From the NCBI GenBank assembly GCA_038213805.1, contig JBBQSO010000016.1:1-64000 (forward strand): a stretch of 64,000 nucleotides of DNA. Direction: 5' to 3'. The position numbers were made by a program, and so were the translations under genes. Positions 5,081 to 64,000 of the stretch are shown in pieces. Numbering within the stretch: the first letter of the stretch is position 1; every line of letters begins with the position of its first letter. The notes beneath the pieces are model-generated. The model saw nothing but the letters and a program-made list of their open reading frames with translations. It made no database searches and was not told where the DNA came from. Source of the stretch: Planctomycetota bacterium. GTDB taxonomy: Bacteria > Planctomycetota > UBA11346.

Positions 5081-5314
5081 TCGGAAGGGACGGATAAAAC
5101 AGGAGGCGCGGAGACGCGGAGGGAAGATGAGGACGGCTCGATGGATTGGATAAACGCCCCAGCCGCGCCGATCAATTCGCCACAACCCGTCATGCCGTCG
5201 GAAGGGACGGATAAAACAGGAGGCGCGGAGACGCGGAGGGAAGATGAGGACGGCTCGATGGCTTGGATAAACGCCCCAGCCGCGCCGATCAATTCGCCAC
5301 AACCCCTCATGCCG
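5081..5314. repeat. 117-bp tandem duplication (2 copies, 2 mismatches) containing the left arm of a MITE/REP-like element
   Basis: Copies at 5081-5197 and 5198-5314 differ only at GGATTGG/GGCTTGG and CCCGTC/CCCCTC. Confidence 0.95.
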
Positions 5315-5381
5315 AATGCCATCGCCAAGACGTTGTCATGCGCCGGCCCAATCCCGCCCCGCCTGCTTCCCCTCCTCCGAT

Positions 5382-5411
5382 CTCCGCGTCTCCGCGTCTC
5401 TTGTTCTATCC
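5382..5411. repeat. Right arm of the MITE/REP-like element (inverted relative to 5092-5121 and 5209-5238)
   Basis: CTCCGCGTCTCCGCGTCTCTTGTTCTATCC is the reverse complement of GGATAAAACAGGAGGCGCGGAGACGCGGAG with 3 mismatches. Confidence 0.85.
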
Positions 5412-20973: not shown

Positions 20974-20998
20974 GGCCTGGAGAAGTTTGCAAGTGGCA

Positions 20999-21234
20999 GA
21001 TGGCTGATGGCTGATGGCTGATGGCTGATGGCTGATGGCTGATGGCTGATGGCTGATGGCTGATGGCCTCCGGTCCAGGTGGAGGGTCCCGTAATCAGGG
21101 ACCTCTATCAGAATCCCACCTGCGACCACCGCATACAAGCCGCCAGCCGCCAGCCGTCAGCGGCCCGCTGGCCGCCAGGCCAGCGCAGGCAGGGCATGAC
21201 CCACGTCCATCACCCATCAGCCATCAGCCATCAC
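20999..21234. repeat. Inverted heptamer-repeat element: (GATGGCT)x9-10 ... (CCATCAG/C)x4
   Basis: 9 perfect GATGGCT units at 20999-21061; reverse-complement units at 21207-21234; related (AGCCGCC) units near 21138-21161. Confidence 0.92.
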
Positions 21235-21293
21235 CATGCGGCAAGCCGTGCCCTCCATCGCACCGTGACGAGATCGATCCCGGGCCTCGGGTT

Positions 21294-46008: not shown

Positions 46009-46121
46009 AATGGCTGATGGCTGATGGCTGATGGCTGACAGCCAAGGTGATCCTCGCGTAGGTAACGCTGCTGCATTGCTTCAACCAACGAGCTTGAGAG
46101 ACGATCCGTCAGCCGTCAGCC
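46009..46121. repeat. Inverted heptamer-repeat element: (TGGCTGA)x4 ... (CCGTCAG)x2
   Basis: Same unit as 20999-21234; both are preceded by GTGGCA. Confidence 0.85.
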
Positions 46122-54716: not shown

Positions 54717-56617
54717 ACGACCTCCAGCATCTGCCGCCTCTGCTGCTGCCGGCTCCGCGCCTGCTCGTCGACTCCCGCGACAGCGCCGGCTGGCTGACCG
54801 TGCCGGCGACGGTGCGCATCAACGGGTACCCGCCGTACATCGCGCTGGCCACGGCGATCCTCGCCGACCACCTCCACCTGGCAGAGTCCACCCTCGCCGA
54901 CTTCGGGCCGCTGTGCGTCGACGGGGATCCGCCCGAGCCCGCGCTCAGCGGCGGCGAGGCCTACCGCCTGCGCATCGACGCGCGGCGCATCCACCTCGCT
55001 GCGCACAGCGAGGCCGGCATGCGTCATGGGCTGCGTACGCTGGCGCAACTGATCATCCAGTACGGCCGCCGCCGCCTGCCGTGCGTGCTGATCGAAGATG
55101 CACCGGTATTCGCGGTGCGCGGCGTGATGCTGGACGTCAGCCGCGACCGCGTGCCGACCATGGCGCACCTGCTCGAGACCGTCGATCAGCTCGCCAGGTG
55201 GAAGATCAACCACCTCCAGCTTTATACTGAGCACACCTTCGCCTACGCTGGCCACGAGGAGGTGTGGCGTGGCGCCTCGCCGTTGACCGCGGATGAGATG
55301 CTCACCCTCGACGTGCACTGCCGCGCGCACGGCATCGAGTTGGCCGCGAACCAGAACTGCTTCGGCCACCTGGCCGCGTGGCTGAAGCATCCGCGCTACG
55401 CGCCGCTGGGTGAGATCGCCCCGGACGCGGAGTGGGACTTCAACGGTCTGGTGATGCGACGCGGTCCGTTCAGCCTGTGCCCGAGTGACCCGCGCGCGCT
55501 GGCGCTGGTCGAGGATCTGCTCGACCAGCTGCTGCCGACCGTCGCTGGGCCGCTGGTGAACATCGGTTGCGACGAGACCTTCGACGTCGGGCAGGGCCGT
55601 TCCAAGGACGCCGTCGCCAGCCGCGGGCGCGCTGCCGTCTATCTGGAATTCGTGCGCGCGATCTGCGCCGTGGTGCGCCGCCACGGCAAGCGCCCGATGT
55701 TCTGGGCCGACATCGCGCTGGAACACCCCGAGGCGCTCGCCGAGCTGCCCGCGGACCTCATCGGCCTGGCCTGGGGCTATGAGCCCGATGCGCCCTTCGC
55801 ACGCTGGTGCCAGCAGCTGCGTGCGGCCGGGCGCGAGGTGTGGGTATGCCCCGGCACCTCGTGCTGGCGCGCGATCACCGGCCGCACCCGCGAGCGGCGC
55901 GCCAATCTGCTCGCCGCCGCGCGTGACGGCGCGGCGCACGGCGCGACCGGCTATCTCGCTACCGCCTGGGGTGACGTCGGCCACCGTCAGCAATGGCCGA
56001 TCACCCTGCACGCCCTCGCCGAAGCAGCGCACCGCGCGTGGAGCGGCAGTGCGGAGTACGATGTCCGCGCCGGGTCGCTGCACGCTTTTTCCGACCGTAC
56101 CCTGATGGTCGGCGCCTGGCTCGACGAGCTCGGCGATGTCGACGCCGGCCTGCGCGCCATCGCCGGCAAGCCGCAGGCCGACGGCCAGCCCCGCGCGCTG
56201 CGCAACGCCAGCGCGCTCTTCACCGACACCCAGAAGCCGCTCGCGGAACCCTGGAAGGGCTCGCGCGGCGACTGGGAAGAGGTCGCCGAGCGCCTCGAGG
56301 GCCTGGCCGCACGCCAGCCCCAGCTGCCCTCGAACCTGCACAACCAGGAGCTGCTGTTCTCCTGCCTCGATGCCAGCTTCGCCGCAACCCGCGCCTTCCT
56401 GCGGCGCTTCTCGCAACCGGTGATGATGGAAGGACTGCTGCCCGAGCTGCGCCTGTTCGCCGAGGCCGACCTGCCCCTCTACCGTTACCTGTGGCGCCAA
56501 CGTTCCCGTCCCGGCGGCCTGGCCGCGAGCTGCGCGCATTACCGCGCCCTGCTCACCGAACTCGGCCCGCTCGACGAGCTCGACCTGCTCGATGCGGTGG
56601 ACGACCCGGCGAGCTGA
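54713..56617 (+). CDS. Glycoside hydrolase family 20 (beta-N-acetylhexosaminidase-like), no signal peptide
   Basis: EAYRLRI, HGLRTLAQL, IEDAP, RGVMLDVSR, NHLQLY, NIGCDE and PMFWAD motifs; GTGA overlap with the symporter. Confidence 0.88.
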   Translation: MNDLQHLPPLLLPAPRLLVDSRDSAGWLTVPATVRINGYPPYIALATAILADHLHLAESTLADFGPLCVDGDPPEPALSGGEAYRLRIDARRIHLAAHSEAGMRHGLRTLAQLIIQYGRRRLPCVLIEDAPVFAVRGVMLDVSRDRVPTMAHLLETVDQLARWKINHLQLYTEHTFAYAGHEEVWRGASPLTADEMLTLDVHCRAHGIELAANQNCFGHLAAWLKHPRYAPLGEIAPDAEWDFNGLVMRRGPFSLCPSDPRALALVEDLLDQLLPTVAGPLVNIGCDETFDVGQGRSKDAVASRGRAAVYLEFVRAICAVVRRHGKRPMFWADIALEHPEALAELPADLIGLAWGYEPDAPFARWCQQLRAAGREVWVCPGTSCWRAITGRTRERRANLLAAARDGAAHGATGYLATAWGDVGHRQQWPITLHALAEAAHRAWSGSAEYDVRAGSLHAFSDRTLMVGAWLDELGDVDAGLRAIAGKPQADGQPRALRNASALFTDTQKPLAEPWKGSRGDWEEVAERLEGLAARQPQLPSNLHNQELLFSCLDASFAATRAFLRRFSQPVMMEGLLPELRLFAEADLPLYRYLWRQRSRPGGLAASCAHYRALLTELGPLDELDLLDAVDDPAS

Positions 56618-56640
56618 CCCCCTCCCACCGGGATCCCACC

Positions 56641-56686
56641 TTCGAGCTTCGAGCTTCGAGTCTCGCAGCTCGCAGCTCGCAACTCG
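56641..56686. repeat. Heptamer tandem repeats (TTCGAGC)x3 then (CTCGCAG)x3
   Basis: Read directly from the GH20-anmK intergenic region. Confidence 0.75.
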
Positions 56687-56854
56687 GCGCTGACGCCTCG
56701 CTTCCAGACTCTCGCGCCGAGCGGCCCCAGCCTCGCGCCTGGCTCTTCGCGCCGCGCGCGACCCCACAAACGCCCATTCCCCCCGCACAATCCCCCCCTA
56801 AGCCTTCCCCCCACGCCACCGCGCGGCCTGCGCCCCGGCCTGCCCAGGAATCCC

Positions 56855-58024
56855 ATGCCCCGCGCCTCGTTCACCCAGCTCTCGAAGCCGTCCGACACAT
56901 TCGACCGCGCCAACCCCGAGCATGCCCGCCAGACCCGTTCCGCACGCCGCCACCACGGCACGCGCTACGTCGTCGGCTGCATGACCGGCACCAGCATCGA
57001 CGCGCTCGACGGCGCCCTGGTGGCGATCGATGGCACCGGGATGGAGATGCGCCTTGAGCTGCTCGGCCAGGTGACGTGGCCGCTCGGCGCCCTGGCCGAG
57101 CCGCTGCGCCGTCTCGCCAACCAGGAACCGATGAGCGCACGCGACATCGCCACCCTGGCCCGCGACTTCGCCCTGCTGCACTGCGACGCCATCGACGAGC
57201 TGAAGGGGCGCAGCGAGCTGAGCCTGATCGCGGTGCACGGGCAGACCGTGTTCCATGCCCCGCCGGTGAGCTGGCAGCTGTTCAATCCCGCGCCGCTGGC
57301 GGCGCGCTTCAAAGTGCCGGTGGTCTCTGATCTGCGCGGCGCCGATCTCGCCGCCGGCGGCGAGGGCGCGCCGATCACGCCGCTCGCCGACTATCTGATC
57401 TTCCGCCACCCGCGCGAGCGCCGCACCATCGTCAACCTCGGCGGCTTCTGCAACATCACCCGCCTGCCCGCAGGCGAGGGCCTCAGCGGCCTGACCGGCG
57501 CGGATATCTGCGCCTGCAACCAGGTGCTTGATGCAATCGCGCGGCGCGTGCTGGACTGTTCCTACGACCGCGATGGGCAGCGCGCGCTGGCGGGCACCGC
57601 CAAGACCCGGCCCGCGGCGGCGCTCGCGACCATGCTTGAGGCGCAGGCCAAGTCCAAGCGCAGCCTGGGCACCGGCGATGAGCTCGGCGCGTGGATCGAC
57701 AAGCACCAGGTGCTGTCGCCCGAAGATCTCGCGCGCACCGCTTGCGCGGCCATCGCCCAGATCATCGTCCGCCACATCGGCCAGGCCGACCGCATCATCC
57801 TGGCCGGCGGCGGCATCCGCAACCGCGCCCTGCTCACCGAGCTCAGGAACCAGACGCACATCCCGCTCATCATCAGCGACGAGGCCAATGTGCCCGCCTC
57901 GCTGCGCGAGGCCATGGCCATCGCCGTGCTCGGCGCGCTCTGCCAGGACCGCGTCCCGATCACCATCCCGCGCATCACCGGGGTCGAGCGGGCGCCGGTG
58001 GCGGGGATGTGGGTGCTGCCTTAA
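56855..58024 (+). CDS. anmK: Anhydro-N-acetylmuramic acid kinase
   Basis: GCMTGTSIDALD, HGQT, DLAAGGEGAP, NLGGFCN and GGGIRN motifs. Confidence 0.93.
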   Translation: MPRASFTQLSKPSDTFDRANPEHARQTRSARRHHGTRYVVGCMTGTSIDALDGALVAIDGTGMEMRLELLGQVTWPLGALAEPLRRLANQEPMSARDIATLARDFALLHCDAIDELKGRSELSLIAVHGQTVFHAPPVSWQLFNPAPLAARFKVPVVSDLRGADLAAGGEGAPITPLADYLIFRHPRERRTIVNLGGFCNITRLPAGEGLSGLTGADICACNQVLDAIARRVLDCSYDRDGQRALAGTAKTRPAAALATMLEAQAKSKRSLGTGDELGAWIDKHQVLSPEDLARTACAAIAQIIVRHIGQADRIILAGGGIRNRALLTELRNQTHIPLIISDEANVPASLREAMAIAVLGALCQDRVPITIPRITGVERAPVAGMWVLP

Positions 58025-58033
58025 AACAGGAGG

Positions 58034-58183
58034 CCCTAGACCCTAGACCCTAGACCCTAGACCCTAGACCCTAGACCCTAGGTAGTGGCTCGGGAGTCTT
58101 TGACTGAGATCATAGGTCCACCTCATTTTCGCACAGCGATCTTCGCAAAACGATCTAGGGTCTAGGGCATAGGTTCTGGGCCC
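58034..58183. repeat. Inverted heptamer-repeat element: (CCCTAGA)x6-7 ... (TCTAGGG)x2-4
   Basis: Six perfect units at 58034-58075; reverse-complement units from 58154. Confidence 0.92.
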
Positions 58184-58232
58184 TCAGAGTCGCGCAGGCG
58201 ATGGACGAACCCCTCAAGCCGCCGATCATGGG

Positions 58233-59150
58233 ATGTCCATGGAACTCCCCCCCGACCGCTCCCACATCCTGACCGAGGCCCGCAATACGGGCAGCACCGG
58301 ACTGCACCGGTTGTCGGCGGCGGAGTGCGTGCGGCTGATGAACCGCGAGAACGCGGCGGTGCTGGCGGCGATGGAGCAGGCCGAGGCCGCTCTGACAGCG
58401 TTCATCACCGCCGCGGAGCCGGGCTTCATCGCCGGCGGGCGGCTGATCTACCTGGGCGCGGGCACCTCGGGACGGCTCGGCGTGCTCGACGCGTCAGAGG
58501 CGCCACCGACCTTCCAGGTCGAACCGGGGCGCGTGGTCGGAATCATCGCTGGCGGCGACGCGTCGCTGCGCCGTTCCAGCGAGAGCCGCGAGGACGAGAT
58601 CCAGGGCGCGTGGGACGAGCTCACTGCGCTACACCTGGGCCGCCACGACACGGTCATCGGCATCGCGGCCGGTGGCACCACGCCGTATGCACTCGGCGCC
58701 CTGACCTTCGCCAAGACTCAGGCTGCAGAGGCGCCGCTGACCGCCTTCATCTCTTGCACGCCGGTAGTGCGTCCGGAGCACGCCGACCATCTCATCGTGC
58801 TGGCCAGTGGTCCCGAGGTGCTGACCGGTTCGACCCGGCTCAAGGCGGGGACGGTCACCAAGCTCGCGCTCAACACCATCTCGACCACGCTGATGGTGCG
58901 CGCCGGCAAGGCCTACGGCAACCTGATGGTCGATGTGCGCGCGACCAACGCCAAGCTGCGCGACCGCGCCGCGCGCATCGTCGCCGAACTGACCGGTCGC
59001 GACCGCGCCGCCGCCTTCGCCCTGCTCGACGCCGCCGGCGGGACCGTGAAGACAGCGGTGGTCATGGCCCGCTGCGCCCTCGACCGTCCCAGCGCCGAAG
59101 CCCGCCTCGCCGCCCACGCCGGCCGGCTCGATCGCGTGCTGGACGGCTGA
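58233..59150 (+). CDS. murQ: N-acetylmuramic acid 6-phosphate etherase
   Basis: TEARN, GAGTSGRLGVLDASE, GPEVLTGSTRLKAGT and GNLMVDV motifs; start may be 58239. Confidence 0.96.
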   Translation: MSMELPPDRSHILTEARNTGSTGLHRLSAAECVRLMNRENAAVLAAMEQAEAALTAFITAAEPGFIAGGRLIYLGAGTSGRLGVLDASEAPPTFQVEPGRVVGIIAGGDASLRRSSESREDEIQGAWDELTALHLGRHDTVIGIAAGGTTPYALGALTFAKTQAAEAPLTAFISCTPVVRPEHADHLIVLASGPEVLTGSTRLKAGTVTKLALNTISTTLMVRAGKAYGNLMVDVRATNAKLRDRAARIVAELTGRDRAAAFALLDAAGGTVKTAVVMARCALDRPSAEARLAAHAGRLDRVLDG

Positions 59151-59384
59151 TTCCGGGGGTCGCTACCCGACGCGGCAGCGTTGCCCGCGCGTCTTGCCAA
59201 ACGCATGGTCCCAGGGCCGCACCGGGTCGTCTCCCGTCATGCCCGTCGCCTCAGCCCGCTGGCAACTCGCCTGTCGCGACTCGCCGGCTGTACCTCGTGC
59301 CTCCTCCACGCGCCCCCGCCGCCCCGACCCGCCCTTGGACGGGCACCGGGCCACAGTTACGCTCGCCAGCCCCTGGGAGCCCGC

Positions 59385-60119
59385 ATGCAGCGCCTCATCC
59401 CCGCCTTCACCCTGTTCGCGATCGTCACCGGCGGTGCCGTGACGGCCACCGCCGCAGAGGACCTGCCGAGCATCCACGACCTGTTCGTGGGCGTGCTGGT
59501 GACGCCCGTCCCGAAGATCCACGAAGAGACCCATGACAGCGCCAATACGGCGATCGCCACCGACTGGCGCGACCAGGACAGCAACGGTTTCGGCGTCAGC
59601 GTGGTCAGTCTCAATTGCAGCATGACCCATGACTGGGGCGGCATCATGTGGGGCGGCGAACTGGTCACCACCAAGGCGGACATCACCGCCGGCACGCTGC
59701 TGGAATCCGGCAGTCTGCCCGCCTACCGCAACCCGTCGACCGAACGCATGCAGTATCAGACCCTGGGCGCCAATCTGCTGGTCGGATACGAATATGGAAT
59801 CGCGGCGCTGGAGGAGGACGAGTTCGGCGGCTGGGTCGAGGTCCTCGCGGTGCTCGGTGGCGGCGGCGTGCGCGCGGACTCCGAAGACCGCTTGAACCAC
59901 ACCGTCGTGCAGCGTAAGGGCGGCAACGGCGTTTATTACAACTACGGTCTGCGCGTCGCCGGTTTCCTCACCGAGCGGCGCTGGATCTTCGGCGCCTCGG
60001 TCGAGTGGCTGGCCGGCACCGCGCAAGTCGACATCGACTACGGCGGCGCGGCGAGCACGAAGATGACCATCGATCAGAACGGGCTGGGATTCGCGTTCCT
60101 GGCGGGCTACCGGTTCTGA
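59385..60119 (+). CDS. Putative outer-membrane beta-barrel protein
   Basis: GGAG RBS, signal peptide, amphipathic strands, C-terminal FLAGYRF. Confidence 0.75.
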   Translation: MQRLIPAFTLFAIVTGGAVTATAAEDLPSIHDLFVGVLVTPVPKIHEETHDSANTAIATDWRDQDSNGFGVSVVSLNCSMTHDWGGIMWGGELVTTKADITAGTLLESGSLPAYRNPSTERMQYQTLGANLLVGYEYGIAALEEDEFGGWVEVLAVLGGGGVRADSEDRLNHTVVQRKGGNGVYYNYGLRVAGFLTERRWIFGASVEWLAGTAQVDIDYGGAASTKMTIDQNGLGFAFLAGYRF

Positions 60120-60210
60120 GGGACGGGGCCCGCGTGGGTCAGGCTGACCGGACAGCAGGCGCCGAACTCGCGCCCATCCGAAGCCCGCGGCACGGCGGGC
60201 CGGTTCTGGA

Positions 60211-63200
60211 CTAGACCTTCCGCGTGGGCGGCGTCGGAGCCGGCATCGCGCTGCCCGCCGCCGCGCGGATGCGCTCGCACAGCGCCACCACCGCCTGGCG
60301 CTGCGCCGGCAGGTCGGCGCCCAGGCCGAGGTCGGGGAAGTCGGCCAGCATGCGCTCGCATTCCTCACCAAGGCGCGAGCGCGCGGGGCCCCCGATGCGC
60401 GTCACCAGCACGCGGTGCTCGAGGAGGCGCGTGCGCGCCTCGGCGATGGCGTCGCGTTCAGCGGCCACGCGCTTGCCGACTTCAAGCAGGCCGCCACGCA
60501 GGCGACCCTCCGCGAAACCGGCGCCGCTGGGCGCGCCGCGCGCCAGGCCGGCGGGATCGCCGAGCGCCAGCAGGCACTCCTCGAGCACGCCGCCCAGCTC
60601 GCGCACCTGCCCGGCGCAACCCAGGGCCAGGACCAGGCGGGCGGCATCGGCTGGCACGGCGTCGTCCCATACCGCGAGCAGCCCGGCGCAACGGTCGGCG
60701 GCGCGCTTGGTGTCCTGTGGCTTGGTCGCAGCGAGATCGAGGCGGCGGGACAGCGCATCGAGGTAGACATCGGCGCGGCGCAGTGCGTGCCAGGGCAGGC
60801 GCGCCGGCAGGTCGGGCGCGGACAGCCGCGCCACCTGCTCGGCGGCGCTGGCGATCGCCGCCGCCGCGGCCAACGATTTGGCGCCTTGCTTGAGGCGCGC
60901 GCGCAGCGGCTCGGCGCGTGCGCAGATGCGCTCGAGCAGGGCATCGATCTCGCCGCCCGCCGCGACAAGGGCGACCTGGGCGCGTTCCTGTAGGTCGACG
61001 AAGGCCGCCGCGTCGCGGATGCGACCGCGTTCGACGCTGCGCAGCACGCTCAGCGCGCAGGCCCTGCGCAGCGCCCCGCAGCGCGCACCGAACAGGCGCT
61101 CGACGCGCGTGGTCAGCACCAGCGGTGCCGGGGCCAGCGCGAGTGCGGACAGCTCCCCATCGCAGGCCGCCTCGAGCAGCGCGTCCAGGCCGTCATCGTG
61201 CCAGGCCTGCGCGGCAAGGGCGCTGGCGAAGACCGTGCGTCGCGCCGCCACCAGCCCGCGCTCGTCGCGGCAGCGCATCAGCGCGACGTGGCCGGTCACG
61301 CCGCCGGCCGCGACCTCGCCCGGGCAGTCGCCGGGCCAGACGGTGGCCGGCGGCGTCTCCCACAGGCCGCGCAACACGCGCAGGCGATCGCCGGCAGCGG
61401 CGGCCTGAGCAGCGAGGAATTCCGGATCGCGGCCCTCGTAGGCGAGGGTGCCATCGACGCCGCGGATGCGAAAACGCAGGCGCAAATGCGCGGGCAAGGC
61501 CCCGGCCATGAACGGCGGGCAGGGCTGGCCGAGCCGTTCGCGCACCAGTTCGCCGAGCAGCTGCGGCAGACCGCGGCGGGTGGCCGAGTCAGGCAGGGCG
61601 AGGCAGCGCGCGGTCAGGTCGCGGGCGCTGTCGGCGAGCGGGATCAGGCGCCGTCGCAGGTCCTTCGGCAGCTGGCCGAGATACGCCTCGATGGTCTCGG
61701 GCAGCGCACCCGGCACCAGCCAGTCGAGGCGGCCCTGGTCGACCAGCGCGAGCTGGTCCTCACGCAGCTCGAGGGTCGCGCCGTCGTCGGTGTCACCGGG
61801 CACGAAGCGGTAGCGCAGCCCCAGGCGCTGGCCGCCCATCGCGATCTCCTCTGGGAAACCGGCCGCGGCGCGCGCCACCGCCTCGGGGTCGGCGAGGTCG
61901 GCCGCGGCTATTACCAGGCGGTCTTCACCGTGCGTGCGGAACCAGCGGCGCAGCGCGTCGCTGGAGGCGATCACCGGCGGATCGGCGGTGTCCAGGCCGA
62001 GCCGTTCGCGGTAGAATGCCGCGATTTGCGCGTCATCGATCCACAGCGTCGGATCGCGCAGGCGGTCGCGCAGGCGGCGCGCATCGGCCAGAACCGCGCG
62101 GTTGCGCGCGATGACGGGGAACTCGCCGTCAAGGTGCTCGCCACACAGGCCCTCATGCACGAACACCGCGGTCGCGTCCCGCGCATCGATGCGCTCGTAC
62201 GGCACCATGCGCCCGCTTCGCACCGGCAGGCCCTTCCAGGTGACGGTCTCGGTGCACACCACTTGGCGGCGCTTGACGTGCCAGTGCGGATCGCGGTGGC
62301 GGCGGCGCACCCGGTCCCCGGCGAGCTCGACCACCCATTCCGGATCGATGGGCGCGCACAGCCGCGCGAACAGCCGGCTGGTCTCGACCACCTCGCAGGC
62401 GACCAGCCACGGCGGTGGCGGCGGCGCGCGCTTGCCATCGTCGACCTTCCCGGCGCGCAGCGCGCTGCCGGGATGGACGTGCAACTGGCGGTCGCCGGCG
62501 CCGCGGAAGACGCGCTGCTCGGGATCGTACATCAGCACGTTGCCGAGCATGCCGGCGAGCACCGCGCGGTGCACGCGGTCCAGCGGCCACGCCTCGGCCG
62601 GGTGGCCTGTCGGCGGCACGACCGCGCCCTTGGCCTGGCCCGCGCCCGCGGGGCCCGCGCGGCGCTCGCGGATGGCCTGCCACAGCTGGTGGCGCACGTC
62701 CGCCCACTCGCGCATGCGGCGGAAGCCGATGAAGCCCGACTCGCAGAAGCGCTTGCGTGCGGATGCCGAGGCCGCTTCCTGGTAACGGTCCCACAGGCGC
62801 AGCACGGTGGCCAGGTCGCCCGCCTCGTGCGCCATGGCCTTGTGCGCGCTGTCGGCCTTGGACTCGGAGCCGAGCGGCCGCACGCGCGGATCCTGCACCG
62901 ACAGGAAGGCCGCGATGGTGCAGGCCTCGTGCGGCACGCCCTCGGAAAGCCCGGCGAGCAGGATGCGCGCGACCTGGGGGTCGGCGGGGATCGACGCGAG
63001 TTGACGCCCCATGTGGGACAGCGCGGACTGCTGGTCGCGAGGCGCGGAGTGCGGAGTGCGGAGTGCGGAGTGCCGGTCTCCTGGCGCGGTGGCCGCTGCG
63101 CTGGCGTCGCCAGGCGTGCGTTGAGAATCAACCTGCTGCTGGTCGGAGTCCGTGGGGACAGGCCGCCGCTTCGACGCAGGCACCTGCGCATTCCGCACTC

Positions 63201-64000
63201 CGCACTCTGCATCTCTCGGCGGGTCCGCAAACGCCCCGAGTTCATCGAGCAGCGACCTGGCCTGCTGCCACGCATGCCCCACGGGCGCATCCAGCCATGG
63301 GAACGATTCCGGCTGCCCCAGCCCCATGCCCAGGCACTGCAGCAGCACGCCGGCAAGGTTGGAGCGCAGGATCTCGGGTGTGGTGTAGGGATCGCGCGCG
63401 GTGAAGTCCTCCTCGGGGAAGAGGCGGATGCACACGCCGGCCGAGACCCGGCCGGCGCGGCCGGCGCGCTGCGTGCTGCTCGCCTGTGAGATCGCCTCCA
63501 CCGGCAGGCGCTCGGTGCGCGAGCCGGCCTGGTAGCGCTTGATGCGCGCCAAGCCGGTGTCGATGACGTAGCGGATGCCACTGATGGTCAGCGAGGTCTC
63601 GGCGATGTTGGTGGTGAGCACGATCTTGCGCCCGCGCACCGGCTGGAAGACGCGTTGCTGCTCCTTGGGGGTCAGGCGGCTGAACAGCGGCAGCACGGTC
63701 GCCCCGGCGAGGTCGTCGAGGCGGCGGCCAGCCTCGATGATGTCGCGCTCGGTGGGCAGGAAGCACAGCACGTCGCCGGGCTCGCGGTCGCCGTGCACCT
63801 CGCGGATCGCCGACAGTGCCGCGCCGAGGTAGCCGATGTCGTCGTCACCGGGCGGTTGATACCGGATCTCGACCGGGAACATGCGCCCTTCGACCGCGAT
63901 GATCGGCACCGGCGGCGGGACATGCGCGCTCTCCGCCAGCGGCCGCGAGAAGTAGGTGGCGAAGCGCTCGGCCTCGATGCTCGCGGACGCGATCACCACC
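60211..64000 (-). CDS. hrpA: ATP-dependent RNA helicase HrpA (partial; 5' end outside the window) with an in-frame repeat insertion
   Basis: GRMFPVEI, FLPTERDI, TNIAETSLTI, QRAGRAGR, PEILRSNL, HPGS motifs; DUF3418-like C-terminus (YRFVPGDTDDGATL, DWLVPG). Confidence 0.93.
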   Translation of the reverse strand, partial: VVIASASIEAERFATYFSRPLAESAHVPPPVPIIAVEGRMFPVEIRYQPPGDDDIGYLGAALSAIREVHGDREPGDVLCFLPTERDIIEAGRRLDDLAGATVLPLFSRLTPKEQQRVFQPVRGRKIVLTTNIAETSLTISGIRYVIDTGLARIKRYQAGSRTERLPVEAISQASSTQRAGRAGRVSAGVCIRLFPEEDFTARDPYTTPEILRSNLAGVLLQCLGMGLGQPESFPWLDAPVGHAWQQARSLLDELGAFADPPRDAECGVRNAQVPASKRRPVPTDSDQQQVDSQRTPGDASAAATAPGDRHSALRTPHSAPRDQQSALSHMGRQLASIPADPQVARILLAGLSEGVPHEACTIAAFLSVQDPRVRPLGSESKADSAHKAMAHEAGDLATVLRLWDRYQEAASASARKRFCESGFIGFRRMREWADVRHQLWQAIRERRAGPAGAGQAKGAVVPPTGHPAEAWPLDRVHRAVLAGMLGNVLMYDPEQRVFRGAGDRQLHVHPGSALRAGKVDDGKRAPPPPPWLVACEVVETSRLFARLCAPIDPEWVVELAGDRVRRRHRDPHWHVKRRQVVCTETVTWKGLPVRSGRMVPYERIDARDATAVFVHEGLCGEHLDGEFPVIARNRAVLADARRLRDRLRDPTLWIDDAQIAAFYRERLGLDTADPPVIASSDALRRWFRTHGEDRLVIAAADLADPEAVARAAAGFPEEIAMGGQRLGLRYRFVPGDTDDGATLELREDQLALVDQGRLDWLVPGALPETIEAYLGQLPKDLRRRLIPLADSARDLTARCLALPDSATRRGLPQLLGELVRERLGQPCPPFMAGALPAHLRLRFRIRGVDGTLAYEGRDPEFLAAQAAAAGDRLRVLRGLWETPPATVWPGDCPGEVAAGGVTGHVALMRCRDERGLVAARRTVFASALAAQAWHDDGLDALLEAACDGELSALALAPAPLVLTTRVERLFGARCGALRRACALSVLRSVERGRIRDAAAFVDLQERAQVALVAAGGEIDALLERICARAEPLRARLKQGAKSLAAAAAIASAAEQVARLSAPDLPARLPWHALRRADVYLDALSRRLDLAATKPQDTKRAADRCAGLLAVWDDAVPADAARLVLALGCAGQVRELGGVLEECLLALGDPAGLARGAPSGAGFAEGRLRGGLLEVGKRVAAERDAIAEARTRLLEHRVLVTRIGGPARSRLGEECERMLADFPDLGLGADLPAQRQAVVALCERIRAAAGSAMPAPTPPTRKV
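63044..63212. repeat. Inverted heptamer-repeat element inside hrpA: (GCGGAGT)x4 ... (ACTCCGC)x3
   Basis: Arms at 63044-63073 and 63188-63212; translated as ECGVRN...HSALRTPHSA. Confidence 0.88.

Follow-up and report, generated by a model that had tools for sequence, protein, structure and literature searches.

The 64,000-nt stretch analysed here, referred to throughout as the window, belongs to contig C16 (JBBQSO010000016.1) of a Planctomycetota bacterium (GCA_038213805.1) and ends inside hrpA, the gene for the DEAH-box RNA helicase HrpA, which carries a hairpin of paired tandem heptamer arrays within its reading frame. The source genome (G000) is a 5.5-Mb assembly of 180 contigs with 69% G+C and is 90% complete. 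In the list of open reading frames (ORFs), hrpA occupies 60211-63999 on the minus strand and runs past the end of the window, and its frame is open for 1552 amino acids within the contig. The best solved relatives of its product are the E. coli HrpA structures 8po6 and 6zww (E 4e-88), and Pfam finds both Helicase_C and HA2_C in it. Between the motifs LLDELGAF and LSHMGRQL lies a linker of 207 nt, or 69 codons (63022-63228, minus strand); an extended palindrome spans nearly all of it, and the reading frame stays open through the element. The matching gap in E. coli HrpA is 8 residues long (477-484) and sits between two winged-helix helices (E. coli positions 476-485).

The hairpin is asymmetric in the quality of its arms. 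Arm 1 (63044-63073) is a perfect (GCGGAGT)x4.3 array with 100% matches, which on the mRNA strand becomes the 3' arm, (ACTCCGC)n, and encodes HSALRTPHSAP. It is followed by a 110-nt spacer (63074-63183) that is unique by BLAST, and then by arm 2 (63184-63218), which repeat and inverted-repeat searches resolve into a degenerate reverse-complement array plus an outer stem. The array proper (63187-63211) has 3.6 copies at 88% matches and reads ATTCCGC ACTCCGC ACTCTGC, that is, one perfect copy and two with one mismatch each. The initial annotation of this DNA, made from sequence alone, had placed (GCGGAGT)x4 opposite (ACTCCGC)x3 at this site; its left arm stands, while two of its three right-arm copies prove imperfect. 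The best inverted repeat in the linker is 24 nt long with 92% complementarity, and the longest is 35 nt with 83%, its arms 113 nt apart. When the (GCGGAGT)x2 14-mer was sought with up to 2 mismatches, the window gave 6 matches against 1.64 expected, a number reached in 0 of 100 shuffles. The minus strand from 63015 to 63240 is predicted to fold at -121.9 kcal/mol (z -5.08), a stability matched by 0 of 200 dinucleotide shuffles.

The residues encoded by this hairpin, an example of which is HSALRTPHSAPR, are predicted to form a disordered segment. In an AlphaFold2 model built from a 26-row alignment, residues 204-266 are coil with a predicted local distance difference test score (pLDDT) of 30-33, below 50, and lie between confident helices at 184-196 and 272-278. 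Pfam assigns no family to residues 259-325 of the HrpA protein that covers the insert in frame (P0001), and an Rfam scan of 55000-64000 at E values up to 1 returned 0 matches. An intein, intron or bypass reading of the insert is disfavoured: Pfam gave no domain in it, its frame is open, and no stop-bearing element of the same class was found to split a gene in the source genome.

To place this linker in context, hrpA was searched in 48 genomes of the GTDB family to which the source genome belongs (G003, G007, G009, G010 and the other numbered relatives cited below); 35 gave a match and the linker could be read in 30. It is 4-17 residues long in 18 of the 30, 25-38 in five and 44-77 in seven, and six of the seven long linkers are clear heptamer palindromes, built from GCGGAGT in G000 and G010, GATGTCC in G009, GAAGGAG in G024, GGGGTCC in G046 (a near-perfect 138-nt palindrome) and CTCCGTC in G048. 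The 70-residue linker of G003 holds a GAGGCGC array with a fold z of -1.4 (mononucleotide shuffles) and is not alignable to the linker of G000 and G010, so that it may be either a decayed copy or a replacement, and two of the five intermediate linkers (G050, G060) carry one-sided heptamer arrays. At least seven different heptamer units occur in the hrpA linkers of one family, and every occupied allele, in nine genomes, is open, in frame and a multiple of 3 in length. These data agree with the initial annotation in its claims that about 60 in-frame residues have been added to HrpA, that homologs normally have a short linker and that the site is a tolerant loop, as the coil model and the short-linker orthologues both indicate.

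The same unit that fills the hrpA loop was an abundant unit of the same genome in all four genomes tested, and absent or rare in others. For example, (GCGGAGT)x3 has 49 matches in G000, 174 in G010, 6 in G007 and 0 in G003 and G009, while (GATGTCC)x3 has 160 in G009 and 0 in four other genomes, and (GGGGTCC)x3 has 234 in G046 and 0 in four others. An HrpA tree built without the linker also shows that empty alleles, the search for which the initial annotation had proposed, are sisters of occupied alleles four times: G009 (74 residues) with G007 (9 residues; support 100/99), G024 (49) with G052 (9; 95/96), G046 (46) with a clade of 11-13-residue linkers (96/92), and G060 (25) with G062 (5; 99/97). 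These four well-supported pairs imply at least five independent gains or losses.

A second variable loop of hrpA, some 175-220 residues downstream and also coil in the model, and in G052 a third hrpA site as well, hold heptamer or octamer arrays in G062 (L070, 1150-1180), G058 (L072, 1091-1123) and G052 (L076, 1201-1237 and 1673-1703). With arrays at two variable loops of one protein, it appears therefore that they collect where the fold tolerates them.

Comparison with the nearest relative, G010, indicates how the insert evolves. The hrpA flanks of the two genomes are 95% and 91% identical, with 96-99% identity at codon positions 1 and 2 and 85-89% at position 3, whereas the insert is 85.5%, 85.5% and 78% identical at positions 1, 2 and 3. 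Divergence at each of the three codon positions of the insert is thus close to that seen at third positions of the flanks, and the peptide appears to be unconstrained. The spacer is 78% identical and the arm 2 region (63184-63230) 83%, and the only indels in the insert are of 21 nt and 3 nt, the former consisting of three extra units in arm 2 of G010.

We consider it likely, on the evidence of family membership, open frame, near-neutral divergence, predicted disorder and recurrent occupancy of one loop by genome-specific units, that the hrpA element is a translated and tolerated passenger of a self-renewing repeat hairpin, from which selection removes only the versions that bring a stop or a frameshift. 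On this proposal, the 207 nt are a hairpin of paired heptamer arrays from the GCGGAGT family of the source genome, lodged in a disordered linker of HrpA, and the element would persist as DNA, being either a neutral or a selfish repeat. We infer that the hrpA mRNA is translated straight through the element, which would add about 60 unconstrained, disordered residues to the protein, so that selection on the helicase would act only on stops and frame. Slippage inside an arm, together with copying from one arm to the other or from elsewhere in the family, would keep the arms alike and replace them over time, a form of concerted evolution, as the spacer drifts. Among the three possibilities raised in the initial annotation, namely a translated insertion, an mRNA hairpin that is processed or excised, and a slippage switch, translated insertion fits best, with open in-frame alleles, indels of 21 and 3 nt and an absence of genes split by stop-bearing elements in its favour.

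Several observations weigh against this proposal. The perfect arm is 94% identical to G010 (63024-63073), more than the third positions of the flanks, which suggests renewal or a constraint at the nucleic-acid level and would be unexplained by pure neutrality. Gains and losses are indistinguishable in the HrpA tree, on which, by our own count, a history of about 8 gains and one of a single gain followed by about 10 losses are roughly equally good fits. When the unit of an occupied sister was sought in empty linkers, an 8-mer was found only in G007 (the G009 unit; p ~0.03, uncorrected for 11 comparisons), and the other ten seed comparisons gave p of 0.17 or more. The 110-nt spacer has no paralogue in the source genome from which it could have been derived. 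In addition, the sole RNA run, examined as Logan assembled contigs, matched the conserved flanks of a relative and not the hrpA element, and the strong predicted hairpin in the mRNA makes it a plausible RNase III substrate, so hrpA expression may be affected.

The hrpA element is one member of a large repeat class. It has at least three tandem 7-nt copies and a close reverse-complement array, as do many loci of the source genome, in which perfect arrays of at least three copies number 407 for heptamers against 79 for hexamers, 89 for octamers and 13 for nonamers. A reverse-complement partner lies within 400 nt of 218 of the 407 heptamer arrays (median gap 95 nt), and a direct partner near 44. 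A looser seed gave 713 arrays and 271 array pairs within 400 nt, including 142 inverted pairs, at 121 distinct loci, and 30 direct ones. The commonest units are AGCCATC (190 arrays), ACCCTAG (38) and ACTCCGC (33; the perfect GCGGAGT type). Polarity is fixed, with the same strand form of a unit always making up the left arm: ATGGCTG in 58 of 58 pairs, CCCTAGA in 14 of 14, GCGGAGT in 9 of 9 and the octamer AAGTCCGG in 25 of 25. The class is mostly intergenic, with 699 of the 713 arrays outside any coding-like spanning ORF, a conservative criterion that misses hrpA itself.

The window holds intergenic siblings of the hrpA element, and paired inverted arrays were found at all three of the places (20999, 46009 and 58034) where the initial annotation had recognised the same architecture. 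These are (ATGGCTG)x10.6...(CAGCCAT)x~3 at 20994-21235, (ATGGCTG)x4.1...(CCGTCAG)x2.3 at 46010-46121, and (CCCTAGA)x6.9...(TCTAGGG)x2 with decayed copies at 58034-58181. A further intergenic sibling at 5081-5400 has octamer arms, (GCGGAGAC)...(TCTCCGCG); its left half forms a 117-nt tandem duplication (5081-5314; 2.0 copies, 98% matches), and its lone right arm, (TCTCCGCG)x2.5, lies at 5381-5400. Upstream genes often take their TGA stop codon from the first ATGGCTG unit of an array, as at 20994 in the window and elsewhere.

Almost all spacers of these loci are unique. With periodic stretches masked, the hrpA spacer has no paralogue in the source genome, its best non-self BLAST match being 42 nt at 81% (E 0.003). 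Of 114 masked spacers, no more than 10 have anything in common with another spacer, the shared part being a GC-rich hairpin of about 25 nt. Many spacers contain a terminator-like CCGGCGC-N4-GCGCCGG hairpin beside one arm, often followed by a T run (for example, C17:1-269 and C22:65282-65492), and this is the only sequence common to spacers; some spacers hold nested arrays of other units. The repeat class of the source genome is thus not a classical family of transposable elements of the miniature inverted-repeat kind (MITEs).

This bears on the possibility that a complete mobile element with terminal inverted repeats, of the MITE type or the type of the Rickettsia palindromic elements (RPEs), transposed into hrpA independently in each lineage. 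The hrpA element resembles such elements as an in-frame palindrome in a conserved gene whose orthologues lack the insert, and fixed polarity as expected of terminal inverted repeats, abundant genome-specific unit families and empty sister alleles all fit transposition. We nevertheless regard it as improbable, given that spacers are unique, that the ancestral linker has been replaced and not split, and that the arms alone were exchanged at a syntenic locus described below; no target-site duplication was noticed by eye, which is an informal inspection and not a systematic search. The source genome has five matches to the Y1-transposase family PF01797, four of them over the Pfam cut-off, and no array lies within 500 nt of any of these four genes. 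Copying or conversion of arms accounts better than transposition of whole elements for spacers that are unique, linkers that are replaced and arms that are swapped. Accordingly, the statement in the initial annotation that an element of this class 'has entered' the gene holds for membership in the repeat class, and the discrete transposed copy that it suggests is not supported by the paralogue-free spacer and the replaced linker.

Coding capacity limits which units can occupy a gene. One reading frame passes through all seven trinucleotides of a tandem heptamer, so a hairpin is translatable only if neither strand of its unit contains TAA, TAG or TGA. GCGGAGT is stop-free in both orientations, while ATGGCTG contains TGA and CCCTAGA contains TAG, which explains why hrpA holds a GCGGAGT element and not one of the commoner ATGGCTG type. 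Among 14 intragenic arrays, the unit is stop-free on both strands in 12, on one strand in 2 and on neither strand in 0, a count that is circular as a test, since a stop-bearing array cannot occupy an open frame. The 121 loci were also screened for coding-like frames abutting both edges of the element. Such frames were present at 19, with Pfam matches on both flanks at 5; one of the 5 is a single read-through protein, UvrA, with a stop-free octamer in phase, and the other 4 are the end of one gene followed by the start of another. One-sided Pfam matches likewise fit gene ends and starts. No gene split by a stop-bearing element was found among the 121 loci of the source genome, which speaks against a general capacity of the class for excision or bypass.

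The uvrA case (C5:13069-13194) consists of in-frame inverted octamer arrays, (GTCCGGAA)n...(TTCCGGAC)n, that encode a segment of some 43 residues, flanked by the UvrA interaction domain and the DNA-binding domain. In mutS, identified by its Pfam domains MutS_III, MutS_IV and MutS_V, there are two in-frame, one-sided arrays (C127:860-882 and 1606-1636): a GCGGAGT-type heptamer with 4.4 copies lies within domain III, and an octamer immediately precedes domain V. A slip of one unit in either direction in these mutS arrays would yield a mutator allele. Further in-frame arrays are found in ORFs at C131:6438, C2:75544, C39:21719, C61:8062 and C73:12887 of the source genome, among which, by motif, are presumably a urease-like gene and the linker of a 2-oxoacid dehydrogenase E2 component. 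The ATGGCTG family occurs inside ORFs only in its stop-free orientation, encoding the peptide SAISHQPSA.

Arrays in coding sequence raise the question of whether the hrpA element is a contingency switch, in which gain or loss of 7 nt would frameshift hrpA and toggle the helicase within a population. As in contingency loci based on simple sequence repeats, the repeat lies in an ORF and its unit length is not a multiple of 3; the copy number of heptamer arrays at other loci ranges from 3 to more than 10, and mutS and uvrA carry arrays as well. A switch of this kind has a slim chance of being the explanation, however, because the hrpA array is short, at 4 perfect copies, the indels between relatives are all in frame, the repeat class is mostly intergenic and the gene class is atypical of phase variation.

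It is also unlikely, if less so than a switch, that the element acts at the RNA level, with a stem of ~25-35 bp in the mRNA being cut by RNase III as in the intervening sequences (IVSs) of 23S rRNA, which would throttle or process hrpA or, in the extreme, remove the insert from the RNA. This idea draws on the strength of the predicted fold, on the long terminal stem that the hrpA element has in common with 23S IVSs, on the same type of arm bracketing PF05635 genes, the family of the ORF of 23S IVSs, and on the Coxiella IVS, whose stem with variable heptamers is, in the available part of the source, reported to be cut by RNase III (PMC4990558). An open frame, a length that is a multiple of 3 and indels of 21 and 3 nt would be unneeded if the RNA were cut or the insert removed, and cleavage without ligation would destroy the message. 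In addition, the two degenerate positions of arm 2 form A-C mismatches on the mRNA strand and not G-U pairs. No joint lacking the element was found in the Logan contigs of the sequencing runs. Four contig joints skip 113-121 nt, with other letters between the two sides or with the intervening letters not given, and these are read as other GCGGAGT elements of the metagenome and not as excision, so the excision proposed in the initial annotation was not borne out.

The same contigs bear on the integrity of the assembly. In run X1, 62700-63073 and 63047-63433 are covered, with 0 differences, by contigs that overlap across the array, and the contigs of run X2 cover 62700-63071 and 63183-63500, with 63078-63158 lacking an X2 contig; as independent evidence this support is weak, since either run may be the source sample of the window. 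In run X3, a relative at ~95% identity matches both flanks, its contig departing from the window sequence at 63000 and matching again from 63260, and this relative may carry another linker variant. Arrays do break assemblies, as several contigs begin or finish in arrays and Logan contigs break inside the array, and an artefact or chimera at the repeat might be suspected on these grounds. We judge this to have a negligible probability in view of the zero-difference X1 contigs that overlap across the array, the open frame and the homologous insert, 78-94% identical, in the separate assembly of G010. Long arrays coincide with contig ends (C1:1, C17:1, C21:1 and the end of C22), so the array counts and lengths given here err on the low side, and the assembly may lack some cassettes.

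A link to PF05635, the family of the 23S rRNA IVS protein, emerges from the wider class. The hrpA arms themselves enclose no PF05635 ORF, as their spacer is only 110 nt and Pfam finds no family there. Each of the five PF05635 genes of the source genome adjoins an array, always of a different unit family, and inverted arrays enclose at least three of them; G009 and G046 each have one PF05635 gene whose bracketing arrays consist of exactly the unit that fills the hrpA loop of that genome. Across six genomes, 30 PF05635 genes have arrays on both sides in 13 cases, on one side in 7 and on neither in 10, compared with random 310-nt windows of the source genome, in which arrays flank both sides in 0.06% and at least one side in 5.75%. 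At C19:6015-6329, the gene preceding a PF05635 cassette ends ...CAA TGA TGG CTG. PF05635 cassettes of G009 (L137) and G007 (L146) lie in a syntenic stretch of 2.9 kb (73% identity), with arms of GATGTCC in G009 and GGGGTCC in G007, while a neighbouring element keeps GATGTCC in both genomes. This is direct evidence that a hairpin can stay at its locus and have its two arms replaced jointly, and such replacement at an orthologous locus counts in favour of the passenger reading of the hrpA element.

By analogy with REPIN-RAYT systems, one might tentatively propose that heptamer hairpins and PF05635 genes form a cognate system, in which the PF05635 product recognises its own array, as a DNA or RNA hairpin, and drives the copying or conversion of arms. 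If true, this would account for arms in the disordered loops of hrpA, uvrA and mutS, as well as for genome-specific units, fixed polarity, unique spacers and wholesale arm replacement, and the link would supply a concrete candidate factor for heptamer hairpins. The proposal is nonetheless doubtful: 10 of the 30 PF05635 genes have no array nearby, no GCGGAGT-armed PF05635 gene was found in the 90%-complete source genome, and we know of no catalytic activity for the four-helix-bundle fold of PF05635.

Understood as a translated passenger, the hrpA element makes this locus a natural experiment, in which one helicase loop of ~10 residues has probably been refilled in sister species by whichever 7-base unit is abundant in the genome, making the loop a recurrent dumping ground for repeat DNA. 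The locus would separate what selection maintains (frame and freedom from stops) from what the element maintains (complementarity and polarity of its arms) and from what drifts (spacer and peptide), and it suggests that the dynamics of non-coding repeats can create new disordered protein segments of 40-77 residues.

To our knowledge, heptamer repeats have for decades been an over-represented class in bacteria with no accepted origin or function. In a limited search of the literature, no description was found of heptamer hairpins that recur in frame within a single protein loop, or of genome-specific heptamer arrays on both sides of PF05635 genes. Several known systems share part of this architecture, among them the short tandemly repeated repetitive (STRR) sequences, which are cyanobacterial heptamer repeats. 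Repetitive extragenic palindromes (REPs), their REPIN hairpins and the REP-associated tyrosine transposases (RAYTs), reportedly described by Nunvar in 2010 and by Bertels and Rainey in 2011, are alike in that each genome carries hairpin repeats by the hundred and that inverted copies of the repeat flank a small gene. They differ in that the flanked gene here encodes a four-helix-bundle protein and not a Y1 transposase, the Y1 genes of the source genome are not flanked by arrays, and the arms are tandem arrays.

The RPEs, said to have been described by Ogata et al. in 2000, are the closest parallel to an in-frame insertion. According to the available part of a review, they are in-frame palindromic repeats (PMC10969869), and like the hrpA element an RPE is a palindrome of ~100-200 bp that keeps the frame of the unrelated housekeeping genes in which it lies and is translated as extra peptide at positions tolerated by the fold. 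Copies of an RPE have a full-length consensus and a conserved peptide in common, whereas the elements described here are alike in their arms alone, which are tandem heptamers, and have unique spacers.

Among plain heptamer repeats, the GGGAATC heptamers of Xanthomonas form convergent inverted pairs, and the available part of the report describes no mechanism for them (Rehm et al., 2015; PMC4692102), citing the STRR heptamers of Calothrix as well. In that part of the report, the Xanthomonas repeats are, like those found here, tandem 7-nt units with a period-7 excess that are mostly intergenic and species-specific, and 70-75 close opposite-strand pairs per genome can form stem-loops (PMC4692102). 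They are described there as under-represented in coding regions, and the same part is silent on hairpins lying in frame in conserved genes, on the presence of several unit families in a genome, on repeated occupation of a single protein loop and on a link to PF05635 (PMC4692102); the G-quadruplex reading offered for them, as far as it could be followed in that source, would not fit GCGGAGT, which has no G-tract.

The 23S rRNA IVS of Coxiella burnetii, by the available part of its description, combines a stem with variable heptamers, an S23p/PF05635 ORF and cutting by RNase III (PMC4990558). To that extent it is alike in its long terminal stem with heptamers, and the same type of arm brackets PF05635 genes in the source genome and its relatives; the hrpA element differs from it in having no ORF of its own, in lying in an mRNA and not in rRNA, and in being carried in frame.

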